Assembly: GCF_028435265.1 (NCBI RefSeq)
Contig: NZ_JAGTJK010000012.1
Span: forward strand, 1-38,899
Length of the DNA: 38,899 nucleotides
From: Polyangium jinanense
Lineage (GTDB): Bacteria > Myxococcota_A > Polyangia > Polyangiales > Polyangiaceae
Direction: 5' to 3'
Position 1 is the first letter of the stretch; each line of letters starts with the position of its first letter. A model generated the notes under the pieces. That model worked only from the letters and a program-made list of their open reading frames with translations. It had not been told where the DNA came from and ran no database searches. Below are positions 18,770 to 36,002 of the stretch, in pieces. The translations under genes were made by a program, and so were the position numbers.

Positions 18770-19789
<1,020 letters not shown>

Positions 19790-27726: not shown

Positions 27727-29445
27727 ATGAACCAGCGGGAAATCCTTGCTTTTATCGACCGGCTCCGGAAGGCGAGGACCTTCGAGGACGCCGCGCACAC
27801 CTTGCTGCGCGCGATGCTCGACGCGGCGCTCGCGGCGCTCGCGGAGAGCGGCTTCGCCGGCCGCGGCAAGATCCTCCGCGGCATGGCGCACTGGCGGCCC
27901 GGCGACGGCTACCGGCGACTGGTCCTTCTCGACGATACGCAGCGCGGCGGCGAGCCGACCATCAACTATTTGCCCTCCGTGAGCGCGTGGCGCTGGGTCG
28001 TCACGCGCGAATGCCCCATTGCGATCGACGTCCCGCTCGGTCGCGTATGGACGTGGCAAAACGAATCCGCGAACCTGTTCCAGGAGGGCGGATTTTCCGG
28101 TCAGGACAGCGTGCTTCGGCTGACGAGCCGCGACACGAGCCACCTCTACGCGATCCCGCTGCGCACCCTGCACGGCGCGATCGAGGGAATGGCCACGGTC
28201 GAGGCGGGGTGCCCGAGGGCCGTCGGCGACGATTTCATCTTCCCGGCCATTCACGAATCACTGGAGCTCCTCGCCGACCTCGCGGCGCCTTACCTCGCGA
28301 CCCTTCCGCCCCGGCCCGCGGCGACTGGCGCGACCGACGATCTCTTGCCCGTCATGGGCCAGAGCATGGCGGGCTTGATCGACATGCTCCGCGTCTTCGC
28401 GCAGCAGGAGGAGACCCTGCTCATCGGCGGTCCCACGGGTGCGGGCAAATCGCGCCTCGCGCGCTGGTGCCACGCGCGATCGGTCCGGCGTGAGGCGCCC
28501 TTCGAGGTCCTCGACCTCATCGCCGTGCCCGAAGAGCTGCAAATGGCGGAGCTCTTCGGCTGGAAAAAGGGCGCGTTCACGGGCGCGGTGCGCGACACGC
28601 CCGGGTGCATCACGCGGGCCTTCAAGGGGACGTTGTTCATCGACGAGATCGACAAACTCTCGCTGAAGGCGCAGGCGGGATTGCTCCAGCTCCTCGAATC
28701 GCGCACGTATCGCCCGATCGGGGACGGCGCGCGCGAGCAGCAGGCGAACGTGCGTTTCATCGTGGGGAGCAACGTCGACCTGTACGACCAGGTGAAGGCC
28801 GGACGGTTCCGGGAGGATCTTTATTATCGGATCAACGTGCTCCCGGTGCAGATCCCCCCGCTCGACGAGCGCCGGGACGAAATTGCGGAATGGGCGCGCT
28901 TCATGGCCTCGAGGCGCCATCGCGAATCGGTGCCGGGCGGGGAAGCGCGGATCGCGGCGGGCGTGGAGACGCTTCTCGGTGAGCATGCCTGGCCGGGCAA
29001 TTTGCGTCAGCTCGACAACGTCGTTCGCCGGGCCTATGCGCTCGCGCTCATGACGCACGGTGAGGCAGGGTCGGAGATCTTGCTGGAGGAAAAGCATTTC
29101 GCGCGCGCCCTGAGCTACGAGCGGGGGAGCGGGCGAAGGTCGACGCTCGACGACCTGCGCGTCGCGGCGGGCGCGATCGTGGAAGAGGCCGAGCGGCAGC
29201 AGGGAAAGGGCCTCGTGTTCGACCTGGATCTCTGCGATGCATTCCGCGGCCTCGTGCTCGGCACGGCGGTGGAGCGGCTCGGTAGCCGGGACGCGGCGTT
29301 CCGGCTTTTCGGGAAGGGCGCGCAGGTGCAGGCGCGCAATCACCACAAGATGCTGCGGCGCGAGCTGGAGAAGGTCGAGGCGCTTTGCAAGGCGCTCGGG
29401 GAGGAGAGCGGGCCCTTTCGGGAGCTGAGGGACGACGAGGCCTGA
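27727..29445 (+). CDS. Sigma-54-dependent transcriptional activator (bacterial enhancer-binding protein) with GAF-like N-terminal sensor domain
   Basis: Walker A GGPTGAGKS, GAFTGA sigma-54 contact loop (KGAFTGA), Walker B LFIDEID, arginine finger region REDLYYRINV. Perfect SD AAGGAGGGG immediately before ATG 27727. Starts 9 nt after the kinase stop. Confidence 0.9.
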   Translation: MNQREILAFIDRLRKARTFEDAAHTLLRAMLDAALAALAESGFAGRGKILRGMAHWRPGDGYRRLVLLDDTQRGGEPTINYLPSVSAWRWVVTRECPIAIDVPLGRVWTWQNESANLFQEGGFSGQDSVLRLTSRDTSHLYAIPLRTLHGAIEGMATVEAGCPRAVGDDFIFPAIHESLELLADLAAPYLATLPPRPAATGATDDLLPVMGQSMAGLIDMLRVFAQQEETLLIGGPTGAGKSRLARWCHARSVRREAPFEVLDLIAVPEELQMAELFGWKKGAFTGAVRDTPGCITRAFKGTLFIDEIDKLSLKAQAGLLQLLESRTYRPIGDGAREQQANVRFIVGSNVDLYDQVKAGRFREDLYYRINVLPVQIPPLDERRDEIAEWARFMASRRHRESVPGGEARIAAGVETLLGEHAWPGNLRQLDNVVRRAYALALMTHGEAGSEILLEEKHFARALSYERGSGRRSTLDDLRVAAGAIVEEAERQQGKGLVFDLDLCDAFRGLVLGTAVERLGSRDAAFRLFGKGAQVQARNHHKMLRRELEKVEALCKALGEESGPFRELRDDEA

Positions 29446-29450
29446 GCGCC

Positions 29451-29545
29451 CCGGGCTCCGCGTCCACGGATGACGCACGCGCGTACCTACGTTACGCGCG
29501 CCGAGCCTCGCTCGGGCCCCGCGTCCGAGCGAGGCTCGGGTGCAC
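29451..29545 (+). repeat. Double-dyad intergenic element, copy 1 (candidate enhancer/UAS)
   Basis: Dyad A CGCGCGTA-cctacgt-TACGCGCG (29478-29500). Dyad B CCGAGCCTCGCTCGG-gccccgcgt-CCGAGCGAGGCTCGG (29501-29539, perfect 15-bp arms). About 85% identical to 31447-31545. Confidence 0.6.
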
Positions 29546-29560
29546 GCAGCTCTCGCGTGT

Positions 29561-29577
29561 CGGCATGCGGGTTGCTT
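29561..29577 (+). promoter_or_regulatory. Candidate sigma-54 (-24/-12) promoter for astacin-propeller gene
   Basis: cGGCATGcgggTTGCTt versus consensus TGGCACG-N4-TTGCW. GG at 29562-63 and GC at 29574-75 (12-nt spacing). About 64 nt upstream of ATG 29641. Confidence 0.55.
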
Positions 29578-29640
29578 TGCGGCTATCCGCACCGCGAGCA
29601 ACGCGGCCCAACACAGTATCCCGCTGGAGCTTCGACACCC

Positions 29641-31431
29641 ATGAAACGTTATCATTCCATGGCGATTGCCATCGCGTCGGTCCTTGCCGTTTCCTACTCG
29701 TCGACCGGCTGCTCTGGCCCGGCCGAACCCTCCGCCGAGGAAAACGTTCAGACGGACGTGGCCCCGCTTTATGTAGCCTCGTCGAAGCTGTGGAGCGGAG
29801 AGTCCGTCCAGGTCTGCTGGGAAAACCCCAGCGCGGCGCCTCAAGCCGAGAGAGACTGGGTCAGACAAGCCGTCCTCGCGTCGTGGGACGCCCACACGCG
29901 GGTGGATTTCAATGGCTGGGGTACATGCACCAGCTCGTCGAATGGAATTCGCATCCGAATCTCCGATGAAGGCCCACACACAGATGGCCTCGGCACCGAT
30001 CTCGACGGCGAAACGGATGGTATGGTATTGAACTTTACCTTCCAAAACTGGTCCCCGGACTGTCAGAACTCGCGCCGGTTCTGCATCGAAGCAATCGCGG
30101 TGCACGAGTTCGGGCACGCGCTCGGATTCGCTCACGAGCAGAATCGGCCCGACACCCCGTCGTGGTGCGATGAGGAGCAGGGGAGCGACGGTGACCTCAC
30201 GCTAAACTTGTGGGATCTGGATTCGGTGATGAATTACTGCAATCCGGAATGGAACGGCAACGGCACGCTCAGCGAGAGCGACATCCAGGGCGCGATCCAG
30301 ATGTACGGCACTCCGCGATGGATAACGGAGTACGGCTATGTTCAGGGATGGCGTGTGGACAAGCACCCGCGTATGATGGCGGACGTCGACGAGGATGGAA
30401 AGCAGGATGTCGTCGCATTCGGCGATGCGGGGACGCTCGTGTCCAGGTCCACCGGGACCGGCTTCATGGCGCCGGAACTATGGGTGGACCAATATAATTA
30501 CAATCACGGCTGGCGCACCGAATATCACGAGCGGATGATGGCGGATGTCAACAACGATGGGAAGCCGGACGTGGTCGGCTTTGGGGACGCAGGCGTGCTG
30601 GTCTCGCTCTCGACGGGAAGCTCGTTTACGGCGCCGTCACTCTGGGTCGGCGATTATGGCTGGAATCAGGGCTACCGCGTGGACAAGCACCCGCGCATGA
30701 TGGCCGACGTCAACAACGATGGGAAGCCGGACGTCGTCGCTTTCGGGGACAATGGCGTGGTGGTCTCGCTCTCGACGGGAAGTTCGTTCACGGCGCCGTC
30801 GCTCTGGCTCGCCAATTACGGCTACAATCATGGCTATCGCATCGACCAGCACCCACGCATGATGGCCGACGTCAACAACGATGGGAAACAAGACGTCGTC
30901 GTCTTTGCCAACAACGGCGTGTACGTGGCGCTCTCGACGGGAAGCTCCTTCTCGACGCCATCGCTTTGGGTCGGGAATTATGGTTACAACCACGGCTACC
31001 GCGTGGACATGCATCCGCGGATGACGGCCGATGTCAACGGCGACGGGAAGCAGGACATCGTTGCCTTCGGTGACAACGGCGTGGTCGTGTCTACCTCGAC
31101 GGGAAGCTCCTTCACGACGCCCCAGCTCTGGGTCAACAGATTCGGGTATAATCAAGTCGGATGGCGCGTGGAACAGCACCCGCGCATGATGGCGGATGTA
31201 GACAATGACGGGAAAGATGACGTGGTCGGCTTTGGGGGCAACGGCGTTTATATCTCGCGCTCTACCGGGAGCTCGTTCGAGCTGCCGAGCCACCTGGTAG
31301 AAGGCTTCGGTTATGATTTCGGATGGCGCGTGGACATGCACCCGCGCATGATGGCGGATATCAATGGTGATGGAACGCAGGACGTGGTCGGCTTTGCAAA
31401 TGAAGGCGTCTTCGTCAGACAGACCTACTGA
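29641..31431 (+). CDS. Secreted lipoprotein: astacin-like zinc metalloprotease domain fused to 7 FG-GAP-like Ca-binding propeller repeats
   Basis: Lipobox signal MKRYHSMAIAIASVLAVSYSSTGC. HEFGHALGFAHEQNRPD matches the astacin signature HExxHxxGFxHEQxRxD. Met-turn SVMNY. Then 7 tandem 54-aa repeats, each with a DxNxDGxxD Ca-binding loop (ADVNNDGKPDVV), FGD.G and STGSSF. Confidence 0.85.
   Translation: MKRYHSMAIAIASVLAVSYSSTGCSGPAEPSAEENVQTDVAPLYVASSKLWSGESVQVCWENPSAAPQAERDWVRQAVLASWDAHTRVDFNGWGTCTSSSNGIRIRISDEGPHTDGLGTDLDGETDGMVLNFTFQNWSPDCQNSRRFCIEAIAVHEFGHALGFAHEQNRPDTPSWCDEEQGSDGDLTLNLWDLDSVMNYCNPEWNGNGTLSESDIQGAIQMYGTPRWITEYGYVQGWRVDKHPRMMADVDEDGKQDVVAFGDAGTLVSRSTGTGFMAPELWVDQYNYNHGWRTEYHERMMADVNNDGKPDVVGFGDAGVLVSLSTGSSFTAPSLWVGDYGWNQGYRVDKHPRMMADVNNDGKPDVVAFGDNGVVVSLSTGSSFTAPSLWLANYGYNHGYRIDQHPRMMADVNNDGKQDVVVFANNGVYVALSTGSSFSTPSLWVGNYGYNHGYRVDMHPRMTADVNGDGKQDIVAFGDNGVVVSTSTGSSFTTPQLWVNRFGYNQVGWRVEQHPRMMADVDNDGKDDVVGFGGNGVYISRSTGSSFELPSHLVEGFGYDFGWRVDMHPRMMADINGDGTQDVVGFANEGVFVRQTY
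30319..31428 (+). repeat. Tandem in-frame coding repeats, period 162 nt (54 aa), about 6.8 copies
   Basis: Repeat starts (Trp codons) at 30319, 30481, 30643, 30805, 30967, 31129, 31291. Units W..YGYNHGYRVD.HPRMMADVNNDGK.DVV.FGDNGV.VSLSTGSSFT.PSL with extended near-identical nucleotide stretches. Confidence 0.85.
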
Positions 31432-31446
31432 GGTCCGCTCCCATCG

Positions 31447-31545
31447 CCCGGAGCTCCGCGTCCACGGATGACGCACGCGCGTACCTACGTTACGCGCGCC
31501 GATCCCCGCTCGGGCCCCGCGTCCGGGCGAGGATCGTGTAGACGC
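31447..31545 (+). repeat. Double-dyad intergenic element, copy 2 (candidate enhancer/UAS)
   Basis: ccggagctccgcgtccacggatgacgcacgCGCGCGTAcctacgtTACGCGCGccgatccccgctcgggccccgcgtccgggcgaggatcg. Dyad A identical to copy 1. Dyad B retains 12/15 symmetry with one compensatory G:C to T:A change. Confidence 0.6.
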
Positions 31546-31591
31546 AGCTTTCACGTGTGCCTTTCGGGCCTGAAGCACCTCCGGACGACCT

Positions 31592-31608
31592 CTGGCACGA
31601 CGGGTGCA
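31592..31608 (+). promoter_or_regulatory. Candidate sigma-54 (-24/-12) promoter for downstream lipoprotein gene
   Basis: cTGGCACGacggGTGCAa. TGGCACG is a perfect -24 element. GC at 31606-07 is 12 nt after the GG. About 27 nt before SD AGGAGG and the TTG start at 31646. Confidence 0.6.
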
Positions 31609-31645
31609 ATGTCCGTGATCGTCACCTTCGACAGGAGGCTCTCTC

Positions 31646-32572
31646 TTGAACCCTGGAACCACGCTGCTTCGTTGTGCTTCGCCGTTCGTGTTCATCGCCA
31701 TGAGCCTCTATGGCCTGGGTTGCATGGCAGACCCCGAGGATCCGGGTTGGGATCCCGAGGGTGAGGTGCTCGGGGAGGCTCATCTCGGGTCAGGTGGCGA
31801 TCCGGGGACCACCAATCACTTGAGGTATCGGGTCACCCATAATCATGGCGTGCAGCGGACCGTTCGTGTGATCGGTAATGCCGCGCTGGCCCCTTCCGGC
31901 TTCCTGCCCAGCATGCCCGACATGCCATCGCCCAGCGCGGCGGGTGAGTGGGCAGGCGCCAGGGTCGAGTTTCTGGAGAAGCTCATCGGTTGCGCCTTGG
32001 CCGAGGGGACCACCGTGGGGGACACGGGACATATTGTCGGGTACATGACGAGTGGGGGGTTCTCCGTGCCCGTGTTCCAGCAGTACCATGGTGAGATCGG
32101 TCTTGCGCCGGACTGGAGCACGCGCGCGCTCACGACGGATGAAAAGAGGTGGGTCACGGCCTGCGTCGTGGCGCGCACCAACCGCTACGGCGCGACGATC
32201 AACATCCTGCTCGGAGGCGCTCACCCGGAGATCACCTATCGAGCCAGCGAGGCCTACCCCTACACGGTGCCGGAGTCGACGGTGTGGGGCAATATGTTCG
32301 ATTCTACAATGCCGCTGGGTAGCAACACCGATAGCACTCCAGCGTTCAATGCGTACATCTGTAGCGACGTGACGTTCTGCAGCTCTGCCGAGGGGGCGAC
32401 CCTCCGGGCATGTGACGCGACGTATACGCCCTGCGGCTTCAGCTACATGGGACTCTGCGACACCTTCGATGCCTTCTGCAGCGATCCGTTGCATTCGACG
32501 TTCGAGGGCTGCTCGAACCGCTCCTACGCGATTCACAGCTACTTGAAGGCGAGCGACGCGACTTGCCCTTGA
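31646..32572 (+). CDS. Secreted lipoprotein of unknown function with Cys-rich C-terminus (308 aa)
   Basis: TTG start 31646 with AGGAGG 6 nt upstream. Signal MNPGTTLLRCASPFVFIAMSLYGLGC (lipobox LGC). Mixed amino-acid composition, 12 Cys, 9 of them in the C-terminal third. Lower-GC codon usage. Confidence 0.6.
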   Translation: MNPGTTLLRCASPFVFIAMSLYGLGCMADPEDPGWDPEGEVLGEAHLGSGGDPGTTNHLRYRVTHNHGVQRTVRVIGNAALAPSGFLPSMPDMPSPSAAGEWAGARVEFLEKLIGCALAEGTTVGDTGHIVGYMTSGGFSVPVFQQYHGEIGLAPDWSTRALTTDEKRWVTACVVARTNRYGATINILLGGAHPEITYRASEAYPYTVPESTVWGNMFDSTMPLGSNTDSTPAFNAYICSDVTFCSSAEGATLRACDATYTPCGFSYMGLCDTFDAFCSDPLHSTFEGCSNRSYAIHSYLKASDATCP

Positions 32573-35818: not shown

Positions 35819-36002
35819 TCAACCACCCCTTGCAGGCAGGGCATTCCGAGCAAGAAGCTTACCAGCCGGGCGGGCGGCGCGAAAGCCGTCATCCGCTCGT
35901 CCGTTCCGTCCGCGCCTCGCCTGTTGCTCGACGAAATGTCATGCCCCCGCAACACCGCCTCCCCCCTCCGACATCCAACCCGAGATCGAGGAGGATCTTC
36001 CG

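Follow-up and report, generated by a model that had tools for sequence, protein, structure and literature searches.

A stretch of 38,899 nt from Polyangium jinanense (contig NZ_JAGTJK010000012.1, positions 1 to 38,899; hereafter the window) contains the same element of ~114 nt twice, at 29447-29560 and 31445-31558, with 90% identity between the copies (blastn E=1.7e-35). Each copy holds two adjoining palindromes, dyad A and dyad B. One base pair of dyad B differs between the copies on both sides, G:C against T:A, and the preliminary description of this DNA read the change as covariation, a sign that the palindrome itself is under selection as a protein site or an RNA helix. This raises the question of what the element is, and which of its parts is conserved. 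Our analysis suggests that the element is a duplicated sigma-54 enhancer-promoter control region of two neighbouring secreted-protein genes, copied by local duplication (probability about 0.65). Conservation is found in the dyad A block, which is probably bound by protein, rather than in dyad B. The G:C to T:A change represents a single event and carries no evidence of selection.

Conserved sites and candidate sigma-54 promoters

Further copies were sought with the dyad A pattern, the loop left free, in one genome per species from 185,579 species. The scan returned 25 matched stretches, 21 of them chance-like. Polyangium sp. y55x31 has two matches, 2,048 nt apart, in a locus that is collinear with the window (91% identity over 13.5 kb). 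Polyangium sp. 6x1 has one match; here both sites described below are kept and homology stops just past dyad A. Copy 1 is also carried by L004, a read-archive contig on which the sigma-54 activator encoded next to the element is 96% identical to that of the window. A metagenome scan yielded a single contig, L030, which breaks off inside dyad A. The end of this contig (L030 3016-3043) forms an extended 13-bp palindrome (ACGCACGCGCGTA / TACGCGCGTGCGT) and is probably an assembly fold-back artefact. No genome has more than two copies of the element family, and these are always located at this type of locus. The orthologous interval between activator and kinase genes does not contain the element in P. 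fumosum, P. spumosum or P. aurulentum. Five full copies were available for alignment: both copies of the window, both copies of y55x31 and copy 1 of L004.

Dyad A is identical in the two window copies, as the preliminary description had noted, and is part of a 46-nt stretch that shows no difference between them (29455-29500 and 31453-31498). Its core, GCGTA-N7-TACGC, has no other exact match in the window. We refer to this core as site 2. A similar sequence, GCGTC-N7-GACGC (site 1), starts 21 bp before it, a distance of two helical turns; the orthologues of copy 1 have GCGTA-N7-GACGC at this place. In the five-copy alignment, 2 of 41 columns vary in the block of dyad A and the sites, compared to 7 of 30 in the arms of dyad B (P=0.03). 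All eight base pairs of dyad A are invariant, so they are uninformative about pairing. The earlier proposal that the element is functional, rather than a passive remnant of duplication, is supported for the dyad A block, where few columns vary and the core is conserved in distant Polyangium. For dyad B, the covariation on which it was based gives no such support.

Outside the five copies, GCGTA-N7-TACGC, with one mismatch allowed, is found upstream of a sigma-54 motif at L031, L001, L032, L033, L035 and L005, where ~0.1 matches are expected by chance. Its N7 spacer differs in at least five lineages. A conserved sequence around a free spacer is typical of DNA bound by a protein and not of an RNA helix. 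Tandem sites with a 21-bp spacing are present in both L031 copies, in P. fumosum (L001) and in sp. 6x1 (L005). In sp. 15x6 (L033), the scanned interval includes one site, and another crosses its 5' edge ~32 bp upstream; L032 and L035 have a single site each. The distance from site to -24 element is 72-108 nt at most loci, 171 nt in L032 and L035, and 283 nt in 6x1. The same order of dyad sites, sigma-54 motif and gene precedes orthologous genes in four Polyangium lineages that lack dyad B.

In the window, a match to the sigma-54 consensus TGGCACG-N4-TTGCW, with GG and GC exactly 10 bp apart, follows each copy of the element. The number of such matches in the whole window is at chance level (four found, 4.7 expected; ~6e-5 per position per strand). 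Two of the four are located on the gene strand, at most 100 nt downstream of the element copies and outside the repeated sequence, and chance is an unlikely explanation for two matches so close downstream of both copies. Both motifs are kept in y55x31, while L004 differs at one base of the N4 spacer only. The motif is also present in L031 (twice), L001, L032, L033, L034 and L035, where only bases of the N4 spacer or weakly conserved positions have changed. Every orthologue of the cysteine-rich (Cys-rich) protein gene downstream of copy 2 has TGGCAYG-N4-NTGC 33-44 nt ahead of its start codon.

Near its 3' end (29540-29560), copy 1 of the window is missing ~24 nt (…TTCACGTGCCTTTCGGGCCTGCC…) that are kept in copy 2 and in the y55x31 and L004 orthologues. 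The loss falls between short direct repeats, CAGCTYTC, and places the sites 24 nt nearer to the promoter motif.

Tandem half-sites with free spacers, on one helical face and mostly 72-108 nt before a -24/-12 motif, correspond to the standard anatomy of an activator enhancer. The gene that ends directly before copy 1 encodes a sigma-54 activator (bacterial enhancer-binding protein, bEBP). Its product matches PF00158 (E=5e-48), contains GAFTGA and is 89% identical to its P. fumosum counterpart. Its C-terminal domain shows strong conservation, including an invariant RNH within the consensus RNHHK, and the predicted fold is a compact helical domain. We infer from the sequence that the two sites, in the 5' block of ~45 nt, would serve as the upstream activating sequence (UAS) for this adjacent activator. 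The activator would loop to sigma-54 RNA polymerase at the -24/-12 promoters, the -24 GG of which lies 73 nt from the centre of site 2 in copy 1 and 107 nt from it in copy 2, and the genes for the FG-GAP metalloprotease and the Cys-rich protein would be switched on together. Dyad B would occupy the spacer between enhancer and promoter as a palindrome arisen in place, acting at most as a stop or insulator hairpin without a U-tract against read-through.

Table 1 Features of the duplicated control region and adjoining genes in the window.
Feature	Position	Strand	Description
Sigma-54 activator (bEBP) gene, 572 aa	27727-29445	+	AAA+ sigma-54 interaction domain, GAFTGA loop, conserved helical C-terminal domain
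Element copy 1	29446-29560	+	begins 1 nt past activator stop codon
Site 1, copy 1 (GCGTC-N7-GACGC)	29460-29476		21 bp before site 2; one-mismatch motif matches in y55x31, L004 and 6x1
Dyad A, copy 1 (CGCGCGTA-N7-TACGCGCG)	29478-29500		site 2 core GCGTA-N7-TACGC at 29481-29497
Dyad B, copy 1	29501-29539	+	perfect 15-bp arms 29501-29515 / 29525-29539; 9-nt spacer GCCCCGCGT; predicted RNA hairpin -36.8 kcal/mol
Sigma-54 -24/-12 motif cGGCATGcgggTTGCT	29561-29576	+	64 nt before metalloprotease ATG; 2 mismatches
Lipoprotein-type zinc metalloprotease gene with FG-GAP repeats	29641-31431	+	stop 13 nt before element copy 2
Element copy 2	31445-31575	+	31445-31558 aligns to copy 1; y55x31/L004 homology reaches ~31575
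Site 1, copy 2 (GCGTC-N7-GACGC)	31458-31474		same as copy 1
Dyad A, copy 2 (CGCGCGTA-N7-TACGCGCG)	31476-31498		site 2 core GCGTA-N7-TACGC at 31479-31495
Dyad B, copy 2	31499-31537	+	compensated pair 31503 T : 31533 A; predicted RNA hairpin -26.8 kcal/mol
Sigma-54 -24/-12 motif TGGCACGacggGTGCA	31593-31608	+	37 nt before TTG start of Cys-rich gene; 1 mismatch
Cys-rich secreted or lipoprotein-like protein gene, 308 aa	31646-32572	+	TTG start; AGGAGG ribosome-binding site 31633-31638

The palindrome between sites and promoter

No other perfect hairpin in the window is as long as dyad B of copy 1; in 100 shuffled sequences, the longest stem had 6 bp on average and at no time more than 13 bp. Two statements of the preliminary description on its relation to copy 2 agree with our reading of the sequence: left-arm position 5 (31503) has changed from G to T and right-arm position 11 (31533) from C to A, and the spacer GCCCCGCGT is the same in both copies. 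The accompanying statement, that symmetry is preserved while the non-paired flanks have drifted, was not confirmed, as copy 2 has three further arm substitutions. At left-arm position 8, T>C (31506) results in a C·A mismatch with 31530. At right-arm position 4, A>G (31526) forms a T·G wobble with 31510, and G>T at right-arm position 15 (31537) leaves the end pair with 31499 open.

Ten of the 15 dyad B pairs are invariant in the five copies. One pair has changed on both sides, in window copy 2 only, and one alternates between T·G and T:A. Uncompensated breaks occur at left-arm positions 11 (C>G, L004), 12 (T>G, y55x31 copy 1) and 8 (T>C, window copy 2), and the pair that is compensated in window copy 2 carries an uncompensated G>C in y55x31 copy 2. 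In four of the five copies the end pair does not form. Covariation is not significant in this alignment, with 99 of 500 column shuffles reaching the observed score. Five random substitutions placed in the 30 arm positions by simulation produced one or more compensated pairs in 11% of cases (P about 0.11). The arms (7 of 30 columns variable) vary like the unpaired 3' flank (5 of 18; P=0.74). With a single compensated pair, no significance and arms that vary like the flank, covariation does not indicate selection on dyad B. The preliminary description had proposed to align all copies and orthologous loci, and had named random, non-compensated arm substitutions as the outcome that would speak against it; the five copies, in which arm changes are mostly non-compensated, essentially give that outcome.

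The origin of dyad B can be followed by comparison to L031. Window copy 2 and the second L031 copy are both 217 nt long and collinear, and dyad B aligns to L031 sequence of the same length that is not palindromic as a whole and holds only a 12-nt palindrome (CTCGGCGCCGAG). Dyad B is limited to the lineage of the window, y55x31 and L004, and is absent from L031, L001, L033 and L032. The alignment to a non-palindromic spacer of equal length suggests a lineage-specific palindrome formed in place, which we consider the most likely origin. Elsewhere in the DNA compared here, sequences like the arms of dyad B are limited to one chance match, within a coding region.

Such a palindrome could be neutral, created and partly symmetrised by intrastrand template switching during replication, with complementary double changes introduced in one step. 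Template switching is known to create and maintain hairpins and to produce apparent compensatory changes (PMC8794818, PMC5453318). We regard this explanation as a tentative but serious possibility. In addition to the L031 alignment, it is favoured by the rate of change in the arms, which equals that of the flank, and by the distribution of differences among the copies. Window copy 1 is perfect and is the only copy with G at right-arm position 15, where the other four have T. At position 4, most of the others have G, and the A of window copy 1 recurs in y55x31 copy 1; window copy 1 looks secondarily perfected. On the other hand, one switch across left-arm position 5 would tend to fix position 8 as well, close by, where copy 2 still has its mismatch. 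Five sequences do not allow direct reconstruction of an event, and template switching is also compatible with a function of the hairpin.

Alternatively, dyad B may be a selected functional hairpin, either an RNA 3' end, terminator or stabiliser of the upstream gene or a DNA cruciform, in which case the G:C to T:A change would be truly compensatory. Folding is very stable in all five copies (-27 to -37 kcal/mol, z -3 to -6.5), each diverged copy has just one internal mismatch, and the compensated pair is worth a predicted 4.7 kcal/mol compared to either change alone. In three copies, left-arm position 12 and right-arm position 4 are T·G, and the corresponding U·G pairing is available on the + strand only, which is the strand of the upstream genes. 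Both copies of the element are located just past a stop codon. Moreover, the left-arm base of the compensated pair has changed in copy 2 of the window (to T) and in that of y55x31 (to C), which fits a break that was later repaired in the window lineage. Against this stand the lack of significant covariation, four uncompensated pair-breaking changes compared to one compensated pair, and arm variation equal to that of the unpaired flank. Dyad B is also absent from L031, L001, L033 and L032 despite the same gene arrangement. The GC-rich stem is not followed by a U-tract (tails GTGCACGC and GTAGACGC) and is no canonical intrinsic terminator; a scan for canonical terminators and sigma-70 promoters made no call at the dyads. 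An Rfam scan of 29000-32000 with E up to 10 gave only sub-threshold matches to microRNA-type hairpins. Taken together, we consider a selected hairpin unlikely.

Origin of the copies and competing explanations

In some lineages the element was copied together with parts of its surroundings. At L031, part of the activator gene (aa 368-425, 78% identity) is found ahead of the second copy. The 86-aa open reading frame called there (L031 2551-2811) is a duplicated, internally deleted fragment of the 3' end of this gene. The first L031 copy (L031 1-262) keeps the promoter motif and ~13 codons that resemble the start of the Cys-rich gene, followed by a stop, and the gene between the L031 copies encodes a different FG-GAP protein, 22% identical to that of the window. 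In sp. 6x1 (L005, reverse strand, ~1964-2640), a frameshifted remnant of the activator 3' end is found with two sites, a sigma-54 motif and an unrelated secreted-protein gene. The 6x1 motif, TGGCATGccagGTGCA, is ~290 nt beyond the dyad sites. Activator gene remnants next to the sites in L031 and 6x1 demonstrate spread of the module by segmental duplication. Copying has taken place more than once, which would bring new genes under the same control.

Several observations weigh against an enhancer-promoter module operated by the adjacent activator. The promoter motif of copy 1 is the weaker match to the consensus, with two mismatches. Sequence searches recognise no DNA-binding domain in the activator and no Pfam HTH_8. 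L032 and L035 have a site with no activator gene nearby, whereas L034, the locus of a paralogous Cys-rich gene in y55x31, has a sigma-54 motif but no dyad site. The locus of the Myxococcus xanthus orthologue (55% identity) has neither such sites nor an adjacent promoter. Helical phasing of sites and promoters is only suggestive and not significant (estimated P about 0.17), and the copies are all drawn from a small number of closely related genomes.

Some of these points, namely the missing recognisable DNA-binding domain, the sites of L032 and L035 and the M. xanthus locus, would also fit operators bound by a different transcription factor, for instance a repressor or one tied to the neighbouring kinases. 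A repressor normally overlaps the promoter. The sites, however, are usually tandem and mostly 72-108 nt before the -24 element, the position of an activator, and sigma-54 promoters need an activator. The candidate activator has the strongly conserved C-terminal domain with its invariant RNH and compact helical predicted fold, and 3'-end remnants of its gene accompany the sites. Binding by another factor is therefore improbable, and the adjacent activator remains our preferred candidate for the duplicated enhancer-promoter region.

Dyad B could also be a functional structural part of the spacer, as a long GC-rich hairpin or cruciform formed in place. It might stop read-through and so insulate a tightly silent promoter, or bend the DNA in the manner of IHF, kept foldable by compensatory or templated changes. 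IHF supplies a sharp DNA bend at other sigma-54 promoters. We hold such a role to be quite improbable.

A mobile or dispersed repeat (REP, MITE) or an integron attC marking a gene cassette would account for two palindrome-rich elements of ~115 nt flanking a single lower-GC gene, and for the different genes between the copies in the window and L031, but was ruled out as extremely improbable by the copy number (at most two per genome in 185,579 species; y55x31 has two and 6x1 a single one, always at this type of locus), by the lack of terminal inverted repeats, target duplications and a GTTRRRY core at the boundary (the sole GTT is GTTACGC inside dyad A; an integrase was not searched for), and by L031 homology that extends into the activator coding sequence, a mark of segmental duplication.

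The two genes placed downstream of the copies differ in character. The metalloprotease gene has a GC content of ~59-60%, compared to ~69% in its surroundings, and contains at least five tandem FG-GAP coding repeats of 162 nt (30301-31413). Gene content between the activator gene and the gene for a kinase with tetratricopeptide repeats (kinase-TPR) differs in each Polyangium species, so that this interval is a variable island that may include foreign DNA. The Cys-rich gene, the conserved putative target, is confined to Polyangium and relatives and is always paired with the convergent kinase-TPR gene. The window and L031 have TTG as its start codon, at the position where y55x31 and P. fumosum have ATG; in all four, an AGGAG(G) ribosome-binding site precedes the start. 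An exact-protein look-up of two window proteins returned no record. A third sigma-54-like motif, TGGTAAGCTTCTTGCT, lies on the - strand at 35849-35864, 30 nt upstream of the kinase-TPR start (35818). L032 and L035 have a similar sequence, CTGGTATGCTCGTTGCC; in P. fumosum the motif is degenerate. Elsewhere in the window, a long open reading frame includes a low-complexity repeat of GAC/GAG codons for Asp and Glu (19502-19642).

Comparison with known regulatory systems

The element is a new instance of an ordinary kind. If our assignment is correct, an uncharacterised sigma-54 activator subfamily, conserved across myxobacteria, gains a binding motif (GCGTA-N7-TACGC in tandem, with a 21-bp spacing) and a pair of target genes. 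The element would also illustrate a route of regulon growth, in which the module, sometimes with a piece of the activator gene, was copied before different secreted-protein genes in three lineages. A lesson for method is that a single complementary double change between two paralogous palindromes does not amount to evidence of selection.

In this respect, dyad B resembles quasipalindrome correction by template switching, where near-perfect repeats gain complementary double substitutions without selection (PMC8794818, PMC5453318). In contrast to documented cases, a switch at dyad B is a putative reading of the pattern of differences, and the ancestral event is not reconstructable from five sequences.

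Dyad B also shares features with Rho-independent terminators and with stabilisers of mRNA 3' ends: it is a long GC-rich stem-loop soon past a stop codon on the coding strand, and its wobbles fit the + strand. Unlike a Rho-independent terminator, it has no U-tract and is located downstream of the activator sites rather than directly past the stop codon. Unlike terminator or stabiliser hairpins in general, it is absent in sister lineages of the same gene order and has no support from covariation.

The two NtrC sites at E. coli glnAp2 are an upstream activating sequence of the NtrC family, and this is a close parallel to the architecture proposed here. In contrast to the NtrC system, both GCGTA-N7-TACGC and the subfamily of the activator are uncharacterised, and binding in Polyangium is predicted from sequence. 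The activator differs in having no Pfam HTH_8, with the conserved C-terminal domain and its invariant RNH instead. In the lineage of the window, a 39-nt GC-rich palindrome furthermore occupies the spacer across which looping would take place. The sites predicted for Desulfovibrio sigma-54 activators, such as yGTCA-N6-TGACr, are comparable in form (PMC4641369). As in a UAS of the NtrC family, the Polyangium sites are tandem inverted repeats on the same helical face, ~70-200 bp before a GG-N10-GC promoter motif, with conserved half-sites and free spacers, and their putative targets adjoin the activator gene.
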